From Escherichia coli (GTDB lineage Bacteria; Pseudomonadota; Gammaproteobacteria; Enterobacterales; Enterobacteriaceae), in the NCBI RefSeq assembly GCF_044324785.1, contig NZ_CP172127.1: DNA of 64,000 nucleotides. One strand, 5' to 3'. The notes below the pieces were generated by a model, which worked only from the letters and a program-made list of their open reading frames with translations, was not told the DNA's origin and did not search any database. Below, piece after piece: positions 14,728 through 61,512 of this stretch (the stretch's first letter is position 1; every line of letters starts with the position of its first letter). The position numbers and the translations under genes were made by a program.

Positions 14728-15086
14728 GGAGTCAGACAACGAAGTGAACATCAGGATGATGACACTTCTGAAGGACACACCAAGATGGTGTTTCAGGGAA
14801 AGGCTTCTGGATGAAGCGAAGAGGATGACGCAGGACGCGTTAAAGGACACCTCCAGGATGGAGAATGAGAACCAGTCAGGATGATTCGGTGGGTCAGGAA
14901 GGCCAGGGACACTTCAGGATGAAGTATCACATCGGGGTGGTGTGAGCAGGAAGCAATAGTTCAGGATGAACGATTGGCCGCAAGGCCAGAGGAAAAGTTG
15001 TCAAGGATGAGCAGGGAGCAACAAAAGTAGCTGGAATGCTGCGAAACGAACCGGGAGCACTGTGAATACAGTGCTCCCTTTTTTTA
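14728..15086 (+). ncRNA. csrB: CsrB small RNA (CsrA-sequestering sRNA)
   Basis: About 360-nt non-coding stretch between syd and yqcC densely packed with CAGGA(U)G / AGGA motifs (caggatga, aaggacac, caggatgg, tcaggatg, caaggatg ...), ending in the GC hairpin gggagcactgtgaatacagtgctccc + T8; sequence matches K-12 CsrB as recalled. Confidence 0.9.
15053..15086 (+). terminator. Rho-independent terminator of csrB
   Basis: Perfect 10-bp stem gggagcactg/cagtgctccc with a 6-nt loop followed by TTTTTTTT. Confidence 0.9.
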
Positions 15087-15130
15087 TTCCTGCTATCCTT
15101 CGCGGCAGTTTTTCTTATTGAGGTTGCTTT

Positions 15131-34199: not shown

Positions 34200-34777
34200 G
34201 TGTTCCCCGCGCCAGCGGGGATAAACCGGGCGTTTCATGCTCATTGTTACCAACCCGCCAGTGTTCCCCGCGCCAGCGGGGATAAACCGCCGATGATCGG
34301 GCTCGGCATTTCGTCGAGGGGGTGTTCCCCGCGCCAGCGGGGATAAACCGGCTTGCAGCAGCTGCGCCAACGTCTGAATATGGTGTTCCCCGCGCCAGCG
34401 GGGATAAACCGATGGTGAGTGGTTGCATATGTGCCTGGCTATCGTGTTCCCCGCGCCAGCGGGGATAAACCGAGGCTATCTATCAGCCATTCTTCATCTA
34501 CTGAGTGTTCCCCGCGCCAGCGGGGATAAACCGGTCTGCTCGTGAGTCCGCGGCGCGAATTGCCGGTGTTCCCCGCGCCAGCGGGGATAAACCGCGAAGC
34601 TCCTTCCGTTGATTACCAAAATGTTGGTGTTCCCCGCGCCAGCGGGGATAAACCGACCGCCCGAACGGCAAAGGGGGCTTCTGGAAGGAGTTCCCCACGT
34701 CAGCGGGGATAAACCGGACACAGAGCGCCGCTATAGCGCCTATGCCAAGAGTTCCCCGCACCAGCGGGAATAAACCA
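34200..34777 (+). CRISPR. Type I-E CRISPR array, 10 repeats (29 bp, GTGTTCCCCGCGCCAGCGGGGATAAACCG), 9 spacers of 32 bp; last two repeats degenerate
   Basis: Repeats start at 34200, 34261, 34322, 34383, 34444, 34505, 34566, 34627, 34688 (gagttccccacgtcagc...), 34749 (gagttccccgcaccagcgggaataaacca); 61-bp periodicity read directly from the sequence. Confidence 0.97.
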
Positions 34778-35245: not shown

Positions 35246-35370
35246 AACAGGGATAAACCGAACTAGTTAAAGTTTTTATTATGTTCCCTGCATCAGCGGG
35301 GATAAACCGGACTTGTTATCATTTTTTAAGTTGTCGAACTTATGTTCCCCGCGTCAGCGGGGATAACCAT
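35246..35370 (+). CRISPR. Degenerate CRISPR mini-array (one truncated and two mutated repeats, one 32-bp spacer)
   Basis: cagggataaaccg (35248-35260), tgttccctgcatcagcggggataaaccg (35282-35309), 32-bp spacer, atgttccccgcgtcagcggggataacca (35342-35369). Confidence 0.75.
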
Positions 35371-51210: not shown

Positions 51211-51474
51211 ATATTGCCGGATAAATTAAACGCCTCTGTCAGAAATGATGGGGGCGTTTTTATTTTGCGAGCAGCATTCCGGCATTTAAAGGTGAACATC
51301 GCAGGGAGAATTAACAGGTATAGAATGGAGTTGGGTGCTTGAGGCTGTCTGGCGTTAAGCATTCGCGAGGTTCCAGATGGACAAAAGCCCCAGGCGATAT
51401 TTCTATCAACCTGAGGCCAGCGTTCGAACCTAAGCAATTCGAATGTTAGTCTCTTCTTTGCAGGGAGGCAAGAC

Positions 51475-51627
51475 ATGCTGACAAAATATGCCCTTGTGGC
51501 AATCATCGTACTGTGTTGTACAGTACTGGGATTCACGCTGATGGTAGGCGACTCGTTGTGTGAGTTGAGTATCAGAGAACGTGGTATGGAGTTTAAGGCA
51601 GTTCTCGCTTACGAATCGAAGAAGTAG
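51475..51627 (+). CDS. Hok/Gef-family type I toxin (small membrane peptide)
   Basis: 50-codon [53 protein letters not shown] preceded by SD gggagg; N-terminal TM helix, LCE motif and C-terminal AYES motif as in Hok/HokC(Gef) (MK...LCE...AYES); not in the supplied ORF track (below its length cut-off); corresponds to the position where K-12 carries a sok-like sRNA annotation (recalled). Confidence 0.75.
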
Positions 51628-51821: not shown

Positions 51822-54521
51822 ATGCGTAAATATCCTTTAAGTTTACTGAAGGATAAAAATATTGTGACTTTTTTTGATTTCTGGGGAAAAACCCGACGCG
51901 GCGAGAAAGACGGGGGCGACGACTATCACCTTCTTTGCTGGCATTCGCTGGATGTAGCCGCGATGGGCTATTTAATGGTTAAAAGCAATTGCTTCGGGCT
52001 GGCTGACTATTTTCGTCAACTAGGTTTCGCTGATACGGAGCAGGCAGCACAATTTTTCGCCTGGCTATTGTGCTGGCACGATACTGGAAAATTTGCCCGC
52101 TCTTTTCAGCAACTTTACCTGCACCCGCAACTCAAGGTTCCGGAAAGCTCTAGAAAAAATTACGAAAAAATCTCTCATTCAACGCTGGGTTACTGGTTGT
52201 GGCACCATTATTTAAGTGAATGCGAAGAATTGCTTCCTGCATCTTCACTCTCTCCGCGCAAGCTCAAACGGGTAATAGATATGTGGATGCCCATAACTAC
52301 CGGGCATCATGGTCGGCCTCCTGACCGTATGGATGAACTGGACAACTTTCTGCCTGAAGACAAAGCTGCCGCACGAGATTTTCTCCTTGCAATCAAGGCA
52401 CTGTTTCCGCTCATAGAGATCCCCACATTCTGGGATGATGACGAGGGCGTTGAACTCATAAAACAACTTTCCTGGTATATCTCTGCAACCGTCGTACTCG
52501 CAGACTGGACGGGATCGTCAGCGCGATTTTTTCCACGCGTCGCGCAGGCAATGGATATTGAAGATTACTGGCAGAAGGCTTTAGTTCAGGCTCAAAACGC
52601 ATTAACCGTCTTTCCTCCAAAAGCACAAACCGCGCCTTTCACCGGAATTAATACGCTGTTTCCTTTTATTGAGCACTCGACACCGTTACAGCAAAAGGTG
52701 CTGGATCTGGATATCAGCCAGCCTGGGCCACAGTTATTTATTCTGGAGGATGTGACTGGCGCAGGTAAAACAGAAGCGGCGCTTATCCTGGCCCACAGGT
52801 TGATGGCTGCGGGGAAAGCACAGGGTTTGTTTTTTGGCCTGCCAACAATGGCAACGGCCAATGCCATGTACGATCGGCTGGTCAAAACCTGGCTTGCTTT
52901 CTATTCGCCACAATCCCGCCCCAGCCTGGTGCTGGCACACAGTGCCCGCACATTAATGGATCGCTTTAATGAATCACTCTGGTCCGGTGATTTAGTCGGG
53001 TCAGAAGAACCGGATGAACAAACGTTCAGTCAGGGATGTGCGGCCTGGTTTGCCGACAGTAACAAGAAGGCGTTGCTGGCTGAAATTGGCGTCGGCACTT
53101 TGGATCAGGCGATGATGGCGGTGATGCCGTTCAAACATAATAATCTGCGGCTTCTGGGGCTGAGTAATAAAATCCTGCTGGCTGATGAGATCCACGCCTG
53201 TGACGCTTACATGTCATGCATTCTTGAAGGGCTGATCGAGCGGCAGGCGCGTGGCGGAAACAGCGTCATTTTGCTTTCTGCCACGTTATCTCAACAGCAG
53301 CGCGACAAACTCGTTGCTGCCTTTGCGCGTGGTACAGAGGGCCAGCAAGAAGCTCCGTTCCTGGAAAAGGATGATTACCCCTGGCTGACGCACGTTACGA
53401 AATCCGATGTGCATTCACACCGGGTAGCGACGCGCAAAGACGTTGAGCGTAGCGTGAGCGTGGGTTGGCTTCATAGCGAACAAGAATGTATTGCGCGTAT
53501 CGAATCGGCAGTAAGTCAGGGGAAATGCATCGCCTGGATCCGGAATTCTGTCGATGACGCTATTAAGGTTTATCGTCAGTTGCTTGCCCGCGGCGTCATT
53601 CCTGCTTCCAGCCTTTCTCTGTTTCATAGCCGCTTTGCTTTTAGCGATCGCCAGCGAATTGAAACGGAAACGCTGGCACGCTTCGGTAAAAGTTGTAGTT
53701 TACAGAGATCATCGCAAGTCATTGTTTGTACACAAGTAATTGAACAAAGTGTGGATATTGACCTGGACGAAATGATATCCGACCTGGCCCCTGTTGATTT
53801 GCTGATCCAACGGGCGGGGCGATTACAGCGGCATATCCGCGATATTAATGGTCAGTTAAAGCGTGACGGAAAAGACGAGCGTTCCCCTCCTGAATTGCTG
53901 ATTCTGGCCCCCGTCTGGGACGACGCTCCAGGTGACGAATGGTTCGGCAGTGCCATGCGTAACAGTGCATATGTCTATCCCGATCATGGACGAATCTGGC
54001 TGACGCAGCGTGTACTGCGTGAGCAAGGCGCTATTCAAATGCCACACGCAGCCCGCCTTCTTATTGAATCAGTCTACGGTGAGGACGTGGTAATGCCGGA
54101 AGGATTTGCCCGCAGCGAGCAGGAACAAGTGGGCAAATATTACTGCGATCGCGCAATGGCTAAAAAGTTTGTGCTGAACTTCAGGCCCGGCTATGCCGCC
54201 AATATCAACGATTACCTCCCGGAAAAACTGTCGACACGTCTGTCTGAGGAGTCTGTTTCCCTGTGGCTGTCTACCTGTATTGCCGGTGTGGTAAAGCCTT
54301 ATGCCAACGGTGCTCACGCATGGGAAATGAGCGTTGTCAGAGTGCGTCGAAGCTGGTGGAAAAAACATCGCGATGAGTTTTCTTTACTGGAAGGGGATGC
54401 GTTCAGACAGTGGTGCGTTGAACAGCGGCAAGATCCGGAGATGGCAAATGTGATTTTAGTTACCGATGACGAAAGTTGCGGGTATTCGGCTACGGAGGGA
54501 TTGATAGGTAAGGTTGATTGA
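51822..54521 (+). CDS. cas3: Cas3 helicase-nuclease (type I-E)
   Basis: 899-aa ORF with HD nuclease N-terminal region (HSLDVA...), DEAD-like helicase Walker A (EDVTGAGKTEAA) and DExH box (LLADEIHACD); an alternative GTG start at 51864 is possible. Confidence 0.93.
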   Translation: MRKYPLSLLKDKNIVTFFDFWGKTRRGEKDGGDDYHLLCWHSLDVAAMGYLMVKSNCFGLADYFRQLGFADTEQAAQFFAWLLCWHDTGKFARSFQQLYLHPQLKVPESSRKNYEKISHSTLGYWLWHHYLSECEELLPASSLSPRKLKRVIDMWMPITTGHHGRPPDRMDELDNFLPEDKAAARDFLLAIKALFPLIEIPTFWDDDEGVELIKQLSWYISATVVLADWTGSSARFFPRVAQAMDIEDYWQKALVQAQNALTVFPPKAQTAPFTGINTLFPFIEHSTPLQQKVLDLDISQPGPQLFILEDVTGAGKTEAALILAHRLMAAGKAQGLFFGLPTMATANAMYDRLVKTWLAFYSPQSRPSLVLAHSARTLMDRFNESLWSGDLVGSEEPDEQTFSQGCAAWFADSNKKALLAEIGVGTLDQAMMAVMPFKHNNLRLLGLSNKILLADEIHACDAYMSCILEGLIERQARGGNSVILLSATLSQQQRDKLVAAFARGTEGQQEAPFLEKDDYPWLTHVTKSDVHSHRVATRKDVERSVSVGWLHSEQECIARIESAVSQGKCIAWIRNSVDDAIKVYRQLLARGVIPASSLSLFHSRFAFSDRQRIETETLARFGKSCSLQRSSQVIVCTQVIEQSVDIDLDEMISDLAPVDLLIQRAGRLQRHIRDINGQLKRDGKDERSPPELLILAPVWDDAPGDEWFGSAMRNSAYVYPDHGRIWLTQRVLREQGAIQMPHAARLLIESVYGEDVVMPEGFARSEQEQVGKYYCDRAMAKKFVLNFRPGYAANINDYLPEKLSTRLSEESVSLWLSTCIAGVVKPYANGAHAWEMSVVRVRRSWWKKHRDEFSLLEGDAFRQWCVEQRQDPEMANVILVTDDESCGYSATEGLIGKVD

Positions 54522-54547
54522 GATGCCCTGGCGTCGGATGACGCCAG

Positions 54548-54576
54548 GGCTTATCCCCGCTGACGCGGGGAACAGG
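54548..54576 (-). repeat. Solitary CRISPR-repeat-like sequence in inverted orientation downstream of cas3
   Basis: Minus-strand reading cctgttccccgcgtcagcggggataagcc matches the array repeat at 25 of 27 aligned positions; immediately preceded by a second perfect hairpin gccctggcgtc-ggat-gacgccagggc (54525-54550). Confidence 0.8.
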
Positions 54577-54950
54577 AGCATAAAATGATATACGTGTATC
54601 ACTAACTTGGTTAATCCCTTAGACAGGGAACTGAAGACGTTTATATCAAAAATAAGGGTTATTCGAAATAAAGAAAATCTCTAAGAGTTATTGATATACG
54701 TAACAATGTCCGGAAGCAGAGTTGAAAAACCTTTTGATAAAGAATACTTTGGTTTTTATTAAGTGATAGAGCCTGAGCGAAAAGGATTATAGAAAATTAT
54801 CTTTATATATTCGTGTGATTTATTGATTATTTAATAATAATCTAATTTTCAATATATTCATTTAATATGATGTAATCTCTCTTTTCGATTGATTCTTGAA
54901 TATGGTGATGGACAACCTACCATGGATGGTCTTATTTGCGAGGAAAGCGT
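54577..54950 (+). promoter_or_regulatory. cas3-cse1 intergenic region, expected Cascade operon promoter (Pcas; H-NS/LeuO-controlled in K-12)
   Basis: About 370 bp of strongly AT-rich non-coding DNA upstream of cse1 with a good RBS (gagga) before the ATG at 54951; promoter elements not mapped. Confidence 0.5.
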
Positions 54951-56509
54951 ATGGAATTTTTTTCAATTATAACAACCCCGTGGTTGCCCGTTCGTTATAA
55001 AGACGGAACGACAGGCAAACTGGCGCCAGTCGATCTGGCGGATGAAAATGTTGTCGATATCGCTGCGCCGCGGGCAGATCTCCAGGGGGCGGCCTGGCAG
55101 TTTTTGCTGGGGCTACTACAAACCAGCTTCGCGCCAAAAGATCATCGTCGTTGGGATGATATCTGGGAAGACGGACTGGAAGCTGAAAAGCTACGGGAAG
55201 CATTGCTATCTTTAGAACATGCTTTCCAGTTTGGCCCAGATTCCCCTTCATTTATGCAGGATTTCGAGGCGCTCACGGGAGATAAAGTTCAGATCGCTTC
55301 GCTACTGCCTGAGATTCCCGGCGCTCAAACAACGAAGTTTAATAAAGACCACTTTATTAAACGTGGCGTGACTGAACACGTATGCCCTCATTGTTCTGCG
55401 TTAGCTCTGTTCTCCCTACAGTTAAATGCACCGTCAGGCGGCAAAGGCTATCGCACCGGTTTACGCGGCGGTGGGCCGATGACCACTCTGATTGAATTAC
55501 AGGAATATCAGGGCAATCAACAAACGCCATTGTGGCGCAAACTGTGGCTCAACGTGATGCCGCAGGATGAAGCCGACTTACCGCTACCCAAAAAATTTGA
55601 CGATCTGGTTTTCCCCTGGCTTGGCCCGACGCGTACCAGCGAACTGACCGGTGCGGTGGTAACCGATGATCAGGTTAATAAACTCCAGGCGTACTGGGGA
55701 ATGCCACGGCGTATTCGTATTGATTTTAATACCACGACAGTCGGCAACTGCGATATTTGCGGTGAGCAGAGCGACGCGCTGCTAAGCCTGATGACGACCA
55801 AAAATTACGGCGCTAACTATGCCATGTGGCTGCATCCCTTAACGCCTTACCGTGTACCCCTTAAAGAGGGTGGCGAGTTTTACTCGGTCAAACCACAACC
55901 GGGCGGTTTAATCTGGCGCGACTGGTTAGGCCTTATCGAAACGGGTAAGTCAGAAAACAATACGGAACTTCCTGCACTGGTGGTGAAACTCTTTAATGCC
56001 AGCAGTCTGAAACAGGCAAAAGTGGGCCTGTGGGGATTTGGTTATGATTTTGACAACATGAAAGCGCGCTGTTGGTACGAACACCATTTCCCGCTACTGC
56101 TCAATAAAAAAGAAGGCCAGATACCGAAGCTGCGGCTGGCTGCGCAAACGGCTTCACGGATTCTGAGTCTGTTACGGAGTGCATTGAAAGAAGCATGGTT
56201 CTCCGATCCAAAAGGTGCAAGGGGTGATTTCAGTTTTGTGGATATCGACTTCTGGAACAAAACTCAGCATCGCTTCCTGAGGTTAGTGCGCCAAATTGAA
56301 GAAGGTCAGGATGCGGATGAATTACTCGGCAAATGGCAAAAGGAAATTTGGTTATTCGCGCGTCAGGATTTTGACGAGCGTGTATTCACTAATCCTTATG
56401 AGCCCGTTGATTTGAAACGCGTCATGACCGCGCGCAAGAAATATTTTACAACATCGGCGGAGAAGCAAAGTGCTAAAGCCGCCAGGGAGAAAAAGCAGGA
56501 GGCTGCTGA

Positions 56510-56513
<4 letters not shown>
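54951..56513 (+). CDS. casA: Cse1 / CasA (Cas8e), Cascade large subunit
   Basis: ORF 54936-56513; start chosen at MEFFSIITTPWLPVRYKDG... after RBS; first gene after cas3, about 520 aa; highly divergent from the K-12 CasA sequence as I recall it. Confidence 0.85.
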
Positions 56514-58116
<1,603 letters not shown>

Positions 58117-60811: not shown

Positions 60812-61512
60812 GTGTTCCCCGCGCCAGCGGGGATAAACCGTTTCACCGTCGTTCCGTCCGCGCGCTTAGCCTGTGTTCCCCGCGCCAGCGGGGATAAACC
60901 GATTGCGCGGACCGGGCCAGCGCGTCGATTTCTGTGTTCCCCGCGCCAGCGGGGATAAACCGGTGACGACGATCCCAACGCTGCAAAAGGTTAAGTGTTC
61001 CCCGCGCCAGCGGGGATAAACCGCCGTGCTCAATTCAACACCCGACACTGCGCGAGTGTTCCCCGCGCCAGCGGGGATAAACCGTTGTAATTTTGTTCAG
61101 TCTGGCCCATAGCGCGCGTGTTCCCCGCGCCAGCGGGGATAAACCGTTTTGTGAGTATCTTATTTGTCTGGCTCGGTGGTGTTCCCCGCGCCAGCGGGGA
61201 TAAACCGATCTGTTTGCAGATCAACAGGCCCGTAAGGACGTGTTCCCCGCGCCAGCGGGGATAAACCGATAACGCCCGCGCGATCTGGATTATCAGTTAC
61301 GTGTTCCCCGCGCCAGCGGGGATAAACCGCCCGACGGCAGTCGGAGATTAACTATATATGTGTGTTCCCCGCGCCAGCGGGGATAAACCGGGTAAAAACA
61401 CGGTCTGAACCGACATTCATGTGTGTTCCCCGCGTCAGCGGGGATAAACCGGACGCACTGGATGCGATGATGGATATCACTTAGAATTCCCCGCCCCTGC
61501 GGTAGAACTCGC
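60812..61512 (+). CRISPR. Type I-E CRISPR array, 12 repeats (11 canonical 29-bp GTGTTCCCCGCGCCAGCGGGGATAAACCG plus 1 degenerate terminal), 11 spacers of 32-33 bp
   Basis: Repeats start at 60812, 60873, 60934, 60995, 61056, 61118, 61179, 61240, 61301, 61362, 61423 (gcgTcagc variant) and degenerate 61484 (gaattccccgcccctgcggtagaactcgc). Confidence 0.97.

Follow-up and report, generated by a model that had tools for sequence, protein, structure and literature searches.

A lone CRISPR repeat next to cas3 in Escherichia coli is probably part of a creR-type mini-array encoding a crRNA-like regulatory RNA

The inverted CRISPR repeat located just behind cas3 in the 64-kb stretch of Escherichia coli DNA analysed here (hereafter the window) is most probably the second repeat, psiR2, of a two-repeat mini-CRISPR on the minus strand, i.e. 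a putative creR gene encoding a crRNA-like regulatory RNA. We give this reading a probability of about 0.78. By analogy with the tested Salmonella system, the window creR would probably repress the cas8e (cse1) operon. The mini-array is real and probably functional but not new, because this kind of RNA (CreR, crRNA-like RNA) was already described in 2023; the established picture of CreR and crRNA-like regulation is left unchanged. What looked like a stray repeat would be a complete small-RNA gene that comprises a guide between two hairpins for processing, a further hairpin at the 3' end, a predicted promoter and a target; through it, the type I-E system would most likely gauge its own level of Cascade. 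Neither the partner repeat nor the target site was noticed in the original prediction, which also made no connection with CreR and other crRNA-like RNAs. Of the roles that it proposed, that of an antisense-transcribed Cas6e substrate comes nearest to the evidence, in view of a predicted extended -10 promoter and a PAM-flanked partial target.

The genes of the window are ordered cysI-cysH-(hok/sok)-cas3-cse1-cse2-cas7-cas5-cas6e-cas1-cas2-CRISPR-iap. The coding sequence of cas3 (899 aa; 51822-54521, plus strand) was delimited from the list of open reading frames and from the cas3 annotation of the 99.4%-identical locus of E. coli N3, and its stop codon is the TGA at 54519-54521. The open reading frame of cse1 (cas8e/casA; 54951-56513, plus strand) has a start that agrees with the casA annotation of N3. 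As in CreR-type loci, the element lies between these two genes, in the interval bounded by the cas3 stop (54521) and the cse1 start (54951). The Rfam search of the window matched only CsrB and sok, with no family over the cas3-cse1 site. As a side observation, the cysI gene of the window shares 95-99% identity with 5378 of the 5426 complete E. coli genomes.

The repeat psiR2 (CTGTTCCCCGCGTCAGCGGGGATAAGCCC; 54547-54575, minus strand), found by repeat search and comparison with the window's repeat, is a near-perfect copy of the I-E repeat. Against the 29-nt repeat of the window itself (GTGTTCCCCGCGCCAGCGGGGATAAACCG), the 29-mer at 54547-54575 agrees at 25 of 29 positions, or at 25 of 27 when the two end positions are left aside (by eye), which reproduces the figure announced earlier. 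The reverse complement of 54550-54573, GTTCCCCGCGTCAGCGGGGATAAG, overlaps the last bases of the hairpin that follows the cas3 stop. It is the sole minus-strand match among the 23 repeat-like matches detected in the window, for an expectation of 0 in shuffled sequences. The orientation opposite to that of the arrays was thus correctly described, and the possibility of a chance similarity is countered both by the shuffles and by the conservation of the repeat across diverged loci. The T variant GCGTCAGC is common to psiR2 and to the last full repeat of the array starting at 60812 (position 61425), as had been noted, and also occurs at 34690, 35283 and 35344. While a terminal or orphan array repeat could share this variant with the arrays of the window, psiR2 differs from such a repeat by lying on the opposite strand, inside the cas region, and next to a spacer that targets its own locus. 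Its hairpin is that of the array repeats save one loop base, and psiR2 would supply the Cas6e hairpin, i.e. the 3' handle of the guide RNA. The psiR2 of Klebsiella spallanzanii is identical to that of the window.

The description of this repeat as an orphan did not hold. The comparison of cas3-cse1 spacers across E. coli genomes, which had been suggested as a check, exposed a degenerate second repeat, psiR1 (54608-54633, minus strand; GTTCCCTGTCTAAGGGATTAACCA in the creR sense, tggttaatcccttagacagggaac in the cas3 sense), located exactly 32 nt from psiR2, which is the canonical spacing. The spacer-like guide psiS (AGTTAGTGATACACGTATATCATTTTATGCTC in the crRNA sense; 54576-54607, minus strand) separates the two repeats and has the exact length of an I-E spacer (32 nt). 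Although psiR1 is 3 nt short, it retains a 5-bp hairpin and a 5'-handle-like ATTAACCA, which differs at two of eight positions from the canonical ATAAACCG. The AACC of this handle is invariant across all variants. Homologues of psiR1 were found in all the other classes described below, in K-12 and in Salmonella; their stem sequences differ while the pairing stays. On the minus strand, the order is therefore that of a CreR-type gene, with two repeats flanking a spacer at CRISPR spacing: psiR1, which brings the 5'-handle nucleotides, psiS, psiR2, which brings the 3' hairpin, then hairpin 1 and, in antisense, the cas3 stop. Folding of the RNA predicted for the minus strand gave three hairpins, those of psiR1 and psiR2 and hairpin 1 (-56.2 kcal/mol, z = -6.6). 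Beyond psiR1, no third repeat rises above the shuffle background. A functional CRISPR array with its leader was rejected, as there are only two units and the upstream region is dissimilar to the three leaders of the window. An inverted leader in the AT-rich spacer was rejected as well: blastn-short against the same three leaders returned short AT-rich words only.

We then searched the window with the guide. Positions 1-17 of psiS pair with 54686-54702, except positions 6 and 12, and this site is preceded by an AAG (54683-54685). The type I-E Cascade flips out and does not read guide positions 6 and 12, and AAG is the canonical I-E PAM. The predicted CreR target (PAM and protospacer; 54683-54717, plus strand) lies 79 nt from psiS and about 235-268 nt upstream of the cse1 ATG. 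Thus, as in CreR-type RNAs, the guide is partly complementary, by its PAM-proximal end, to a site carrying the cognate PAM. Besides psiS itself, it is the sole long seed-anchored match to the guide in the 64 kb, all remaining matches in the window ending at 8 and having no PAM. From 20000 shuffled guides compared with the spacer region, none reached a run of 17, the maximum being 14, in 5 shuffles.

The mini-array was also identified at eight further loci, i.e. in three other E. coli classes, K. spallanzanii, two metagenome contigs, K-12 and Salmonella Senftenberg. The guides are not the same from locus to locus, and each of them matches its own intergenic region best, beside an AAG or ATG PAM. 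When nine guides were compared with nine spacer regions (9 x 9 matrix), all 9 guides scored best with their cognate region, with runs of 17, 21, 19, 14, 11, 15, 8, 8 and 15, while most unrelated pairs reached at most 4 and a few 6-7. The run is 21 in the str135 class and 19 in the ECNB21 class, both with an ATG PAM. The target lies on the opposite strand in the TUM14771 class (PAM AAG, run of 14) and in K. spallanzanii (PAM ATG, run of 11). Among the metagenome contigs, L020 shows 15 consecutive nucleotides next to an ATG, and L022 has two tandem sites with an ATG and a run of 8; K-12 and L022 are the cases with just 8 uninterrupted seed positions. For the guide of another contig, L023, no target was found. 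Guide and target vary together: the guide of str135 departs from that of the window at positions 10, 15 and 16, each change being mirrored in the target, and between str135 and ECNB21, guide position 15 co-varies with the target. The guide length is 32-33 or 26-27 nt depending on the class, i.e. lengths one Cas7 step apart. Within E. coli, this site thus varies naturally: guide and target have co-evolved in several pairs, the target may lie on either strand, and the element was lost repeatedly.

Several observations favour an RNA made from the minus strand. The psiR1 stems of K. spallanzanii, L020 and L023 contain G.U pairs that would be C.A mismatches on the cas3-sense strand, and the folding energies in the creR sense versus the cas3 sense are -5.8 versus -1.3, -5.0 versus -1.5 and -6.7 versus -2.6 kcal/mol, respectively. 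In L020, a like asymmetry toward the creR sense is seen in psiR2 and in hairpin 1 (-18.2 versus -14.6 for the latter), two pairs of hairpin 1 being G.U in the creR sense only. Moreover, our own consensus scan gave a putative creR promoter (54640-54668, minus strand), composed of a -35 TTTCGA (54668-54663), a TG (54648-54647) and a -10 TATAAA (54645-54640). The predicted start, at about 54633, is the first base of psiR1. An extended -10 of the form TGn-TAxxxT is present 5-8 nt upstream of psiR1 in most aligned variants, as well as in the Salmonella copy (by eye). The exceptions are K-12, where the TG directly abuts TACATT, and L023, which has a poor match only. On the plus strand, reading of the sequence gave a candidate promoter for the cas8e operon (54722-54750), with a -35 TTGAAA (54722-54727), a 17-nt spacer and a -10 TACTTT (54745-54750). 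This match, at consensus level only, begins 4 nt past the end of the protospacer, and its counterpart in the str135 and ECNB21 alignment is TTGAGT-17-TATTTT. Both promoters are consensus-level predictions, and the tool scan of the region listed neither of them.

The hairpin reported just past the cas3 stop (hairpin 1; 54525-54550) was recovered as described. Its first base is the fourth nucleotide after the TGA, separated from it by GAT, and its G+C-rich stem of 11 bp closes a 4-nt loop without any mismatch (gccctggcgtc-ggat-gacgccagggc). Hairpin 1 lies directly 3' of psiR2 in the creR sense and folds with -25 kcal/mol in either sense. In a covariation alignment of 8 sequences, 7 of them distinct, the two helices together were 93.7% paired, versus 32-58% when the partners were slid, and none of 500 shuffles reached the observed covariation score. 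Four stem pairs of hairpin 1 are changed on both sides (C-G to A-U or G-C; U-A to C-G; G-C to A-U). The 7-bp stem of psiR2 is present in all aligned sequences, a C-G pair being replaced once by U-A and once by U.G. Only one copy of hairpin 1 exists in the window, and in E. coli it occurs only at this locus, in 16 of the 5426 complete genomes. A dispersed palindrome of the REP or BIME type, considered for this hairpin, was rejected on the basis of this single copy at one place per genome. A canonical Rho-independent terminator was rejected as well: the stem is present, the U-run is missing on both strands at hairpin 1 in the window, and no terminator was called there. In L020, a TTTT follows hairpin 1 in the creR sense, and four extra bases lie between hairpin 1 and the cas3 stop. 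The U-tract may have been constrained away by the cas3 coding sequence.

Hairpin 1 probably acts as a 3' terminator or end protector of creR and as a barrier between the convergent cas3 and creR transcripts. The transcriptional insulator considered in the original prediction is thus plausible for this hairpin, since cas3 and the mini-array converge there and Salmonella lacks it, and was not retained for psiR2. In Salmonella, where hairpin 1 is absent, cas3 is divergent and creR does not run into the cas3 3' end. Only tentatively would we go further and propose that hairpin 1 is an obligatory accessory of creR wherever creR converges on cas3, i.e. a barrier without a U-tract that sets the CreR 3' end. 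If this were true, hairpin 1, kept by compensatory evolution, would shield cas3 from antisense read-through and vice versa, and a single junction of 50 nt would tie the dosage of CreR to the expression of cas3. The deletion that removed the module from nearly all members of one E. coli cas lineage would then represent a switch from self-regulated to H-NS-only control. In the available portions of Liu 2023 (10.1101/2023.03.10.532045) and Shmakov 2023 (10.1101/2023.03.03.530964), no description of hairpin 1 was found. Within the literature examined, this conserved 3' hairpin is the sole part of the element for which no description was found.

The other parts have close counterparts in published systems. 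According to Liu 2023 (10.1101/2023.03.10.532045), the CreR of Salmonella enterica represses PcasA through the E. coli Cascade, and an excess of crRNA relieves this repression. It comprises a psiR1 with a 5' handle, a psiR2 with a 3' hairpin and a target about 140 bp from the casA start (10.1101/2023.03.10.532045). The likeness with the window lies in the degenerate two-repeat mini-CRISPR beside casA and in a psiS that pairs PAM-proximally with an AAG-flanked site. In S. Senftenberg, a fragment of the chromosome that is filed as a plasmid contains psiR2 (ggttatccccgctggcgcggggaac), psiS and psiR1 (cggtttatcccataattttagggaac) in its casA-cas3 spacer. Its psiS begins with TAG and has 15 consecutive nucleotides in common with an AAG-flanked site. 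The repeats of this copy are alignable with those of the window, in equal order and orientation relative to casA, and the element fits the description of the tested S. enterica CreR; a sequence relationship between the window element and an experimentally validated member was found through this copy. Some differences should be mentioned. Neither the guide nor the target is related in sequence to its counterpart; with about 22-24 nt (own count), the spacer is shorter in Salmonella than in the window (32 nt); and creR points at the cas3 start in Salmonella, whereas it converges on the cas3 stop here. The target is also farther from the casA/cse1 start in the window (about 250 nt, versus about 140 bp in Salmonella), and it is the Salmonella element that has been tested.

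Shmakov 2023 (10.1101/2023.03.03.530964) reports mini-arrays of type I-E loci, an E. coli locus among them, that lie between cas3 and cas8 and are transcribed in the direction opposite to cas3. These mini-arrays use an AAG PAM, tolerate mismatches at position 6 and target a site upstream of Pcas (10.1101/2023.03.03.530964). Their position, direction, AAG PAM, position-6 tolerance and target downstream of the mini-array are as in the window. In contrast, their seed-adjacent repeat is the better conserved one according to this report, whereas in the window the better-conserved repeat stands at the 3' end of the guide. Finally, Liu 2023 (10.1101/2023.03.10.532045) describes CreA, the RNA of the CreTA modules of the type I-B system of Haloarcula hispanica and others, which, by means of a guide with a partial match to a promoter, makes a repressor of Cascade. 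CreA is a degenerate two-repeat mini-CRISPR as in the window; it represses a toxin gene, and none is evident here.

The comparison also extends to K-12. Its cas3-casA spacer, of a type found in 1133 genomes, contains cggtttatccctacttaagtagggaagg, which is homologous to psiR1 and combines a 7-bp stem with a handle that is exactly ATAAACCG. The psiR2 of K-12 overlaps the cas3 stop and can hardly be recognised (own reading). A target search requiring a strict uninterrupted run gave nothing for K-12, while a relaxed search (own reading) gave an AAG-flanked partial target for its guide, with 14 of 16 positions paired and mismatches at 6 and 9. In K-12, an H-NS-repressed promoter, anti-Pcas, is directed toward cas3 and yields a structured RNA of 150-200 nt whose role is not known (Pul et al. 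2010, as summarised in PMC7074321 and PMC10011333); the same sources present the E. coli CRISPR-Cas system as largely silenced by H-NS. The window likewise has a predicted promoter in the cas3-casA spacer directed toward cas3, although K-12 carries the other cas variant. The creR element thus suggests a role for the long-unexplained anti-Pcas RNA of K-12.

Taken together, these features would fit the following mechanism. The predicted extended -10 promoter just upstream of psiR1 would start transcription toward cas3, and Cas6e, by comparison with the canonical processing of I-E repeats, would cut the psiR1 and psiR2 hairpins. The product, of about 61 nt, would begin with AUUAACCA, comprise the 8-nt handle, the 32-nt psiS and the psiR2 hairpin, and load into Cascade. 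Upstream of cse1, in the divergent promoter region, its guide would pair with the site at 54683-54702 that carries the AAG, over the PAM-proximal 17 nt only. If the published work on Salmonella CreR can be transposed, Cas3 would not be licensed by so short an R-loop, which would nonetheless keep Cascade on the DNA. So bound, Cascade would act as a repressor of the cas8e promoter, and this autorepression would be relieved when crRNAs or anti-CRISPRs compete for Cascade, as in Salmonella. Hairpin 1 would most likely end or stabilise the creR transcript and separate the convergent cas3 and creR units.

Three other explanations were weighed against the creR reading. The relic of an ancestral array, one of the interpretations initially offered, would be a decayed inverted repeat-spacer-repeat left by an old cas3/cse1 rearrangement and drifting, without function, toward loss. 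It draws on the loss of the element by about 99% of the E. coli genomes with this cas3 variant, on their 97-bp spacer whose remnants resemble a deletion product, on the degeneracy of psiR1, on the lack of a target in L023 and on the largely H-NS-silenced state of E. coli CRISPR-Cas. We nevertheless consider it improbable. Drift would not be expected to leave a PAM together with seed pairing in 8 of the 9 independent pairs of guide and target, where mismatches occur at position 6 and often at 12. The three hairpins are maintained by compensatory and strand-specific G.U changes, the extended -10 is held at a fixed distance from psiR1, and the Salmonella element fitting the tested CreR description has an equal layout. 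The relic claim was abandoned on this basis, since, in diverged loci, compensatory changes have preserved both repeat hairpins as well as the pairing of guide and target.

Alternatively, the hairpins could belong to the cas3 3' end, as a tandem stem-loop terminator or mRNA stabiliser on the plus strand, the likeness to a repeat being incidental. They begin 3 nt past the cas3 stop, hairpin 1 shows no folding preference for either sense at most loci and is absent from Salmonella, where the cas3 3' end lies elsewhere, and a short remnant hairpin (gcctgcgacagggc) follows the cas3 stop in genomes without the mini-array. However, no plus-strand T-run follows either hairpin and no terminator was called. 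The informative wobble pairs argue for the minus-strand RNA, and psiR2 is present in Salmonella, where it is not at a cas3 3' end. This reading would also leave psiR1, the exact 32-nt spacing, the PAM-flanked target and the guide-target co-variation unexplained, and we regard it as quite improbable as a whole; a role of hairpin 1 alone at the cas3 3' end can coexist with the creR reading. Just as improbable in our view is that the mini-array forms the antitoxin half of a CreTA-like module, with a toxin gene between the mini-array and cse1 as its main target, with or without the cas promoter. CreA RNAs are built alike, and the interval between mini-arrays and cas genes is enriched in toxin-antitoxin genes, according to the two 2023 reports (10.1101/2023.03.10.532045, 10.1101/2023.03.03.530964). 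In addition, between the target and cse1, the TUM14771 class and K. spallanzanii share a conserved ORF of 32 aa that has a Shine-Dalgarno sequence. This ORF is however missing in the window, str135 and ECNB21 classes, its peptide matches no NCBIfam family, nothing shows toxicity, and no conserved ORF is evident at 54718-54950. The 18-aa ORF that starts at the ATG at 54707 of the window encodes a protein that is not conserved in str135 or ECNB21 (alignment by eye).

The creR circuit is probably inactive in the strain of the window because its cas7 gene has a nonsense codon. In the translation of cas7 (casC; 57061-58116, plus strand), an in-frame TAA occupies 57307-57309, where N3 has GAA. The two cas loci differ at 134 of 8894 positions, and cas7e and the other cas genes are intact in N3. 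An intact cognate effector was thus not found in the same genome as the window's mini-array, and the Cascade with which the guide RNA presumably associates is probably defective there. This nonsense codon bears on present activity in the strain, not on the identity of the element. For annotation, the case implies that lone repeats beside cas3 need a check for a degenerate partner and a self-target before being labelled as relics.

Finally, we looked at the distribution of the element among relatives. The cas3 variant of the window is present in 1872 of the 5426 complete E. coli genomes, and only 16 of these 1872 genomes keep the hairpin and the repeat, in four classes (window/N3, str135, ECNB21 and TUM14771). 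Most genomes with this variant have a 97-bp spacer in which hairpin 1 and the target region survive only as remnants and which looks like the product of a deletion. A Cas3-based genome scan covered 13 loci and found the element in one of them, that of K. spallanzanii; it was absent from those of E. albertii, another Escherichia species, Citrobacter, S. diarizonae, K. grimontii and Phytobacter. The creR element is therefore dispensable, because most of the lineage, E. albertii and several other genera do without it. A pattern scan of viral contigs found no creR mimics of the Cracr-like kind. Matches in a plasmid collection were also rejected as creR mimics, the two inspected being ordinary array repeats on chromosomal fragments near iap, and those in a phage collection were taken as arrays because they occur at 4-27 places per record. 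The same type of pattern scan in metagenomes yielded four contigs, among which L020, L022 and L023 carry distinct variants and L021 is near-identical to the window.

The guides of the minus-strand mini-array between cas3 and cse1 (creR; repeats psiR1 and psiR2 around the guide psiS, 54576-54607 in the window) and of its homologues fall into two length groups, 32-33 nt versus 26-27 nt. The two groups are separated by about 6 nt, i.e. one Cas7 step of Cascade. By our own count, the guide of the Salmonella copy measures about 22-24 nt. This copy, in S. Senftenberg NCTC10384 (L026 7841-8197), lies on NZ_LN868944.1, a 728-kb record that is labelled "plasmid 2" but is a fragment of the chromosome. 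At this locus, creR is located upstream of cas3 and on the same strand, and it points to the start of cas3 because cas3 is divergent from casA.

Directly upstream of the cse1 start, we found a conserved block, GGACAACC..CCAGGGATGGTC, at 54905-54935 in the window and at 1655-1690 in the compared cas locus L002, as well as in L010 and in Klebsiella spallanzanii (L014). This block is kept across the E. coli variants of the cas3-cse1 spacer, including those from which the mini-array has been lost, and only its CCAGGGATGGT core remains in the Klebsiella loci. The block may fold into a structure in the 5' UTR or act as a binding site, or it may contain a short upstream ORF, which reads MDNRPGMVFFTRGCV in the common form.

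A conserved ORF of 32 amino acids, MEEKPNRYKRLFCRLMIRLGNKLSVSFQLSVR, preceded by a Shine-Dalgarno sequence, was identified between the mini-array target and cse1 in E. coli TUM14771 (L005 1818-1916) and K. spallanzanii (L014 2513-2611). By eye, these two full-length copies display many synonymous differences, and truncated copies are found in L010 and in a metagenome contig (L023). The ORF is not present in the window and its product has no match in NCBIfam. It could encode a cargo similar to CreT, the toxin of CreTA modules, or a leader peptide.

In K-12 (L006, about 2561-2600), the last codons of cas3 contain a perfect 8-bp hairpin (gggatgac-caga-gtcatccc), which begins right where a degenerate psiR2 would end. 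Its placement mirrors that of hairpin 1 of the window, the 11-bp stem-loop located between the cas3 stop and psiR2. This K-12 hairpin could have arisen by chance, or could be a module of the window type absorbed into the cas3 coding sequence.

Translation of cas7 (57061-58116) revealed an in-frame TAA at codon 83 (57307-57309), where the near-identical E. coli strain N3 has GAA and an intact gene. The Cascade of the source strain is probably non-functional.

The window also carries a match to the sok antitoxin RNA (Rfam RF01794, 111.7 bits) at 51333-51490, between cysH and cas3; a Hok/Gef family protein is annotated in the matching region of N3, and the K-12 counterpart is sokX. A full-length CsrB sRNA (RF00018, 375 bits) was detected at 14729-15088. 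A second type I-E array, with nine repeats, occupies 34202-34713 and is followed, about 570 bp further, by a degenerate two-repeat mini-array on the plus strand (35283-35367). Both repeats of the latter carry the T variant, the base variant common to psiR2 and the terminal array repeat at 61425.
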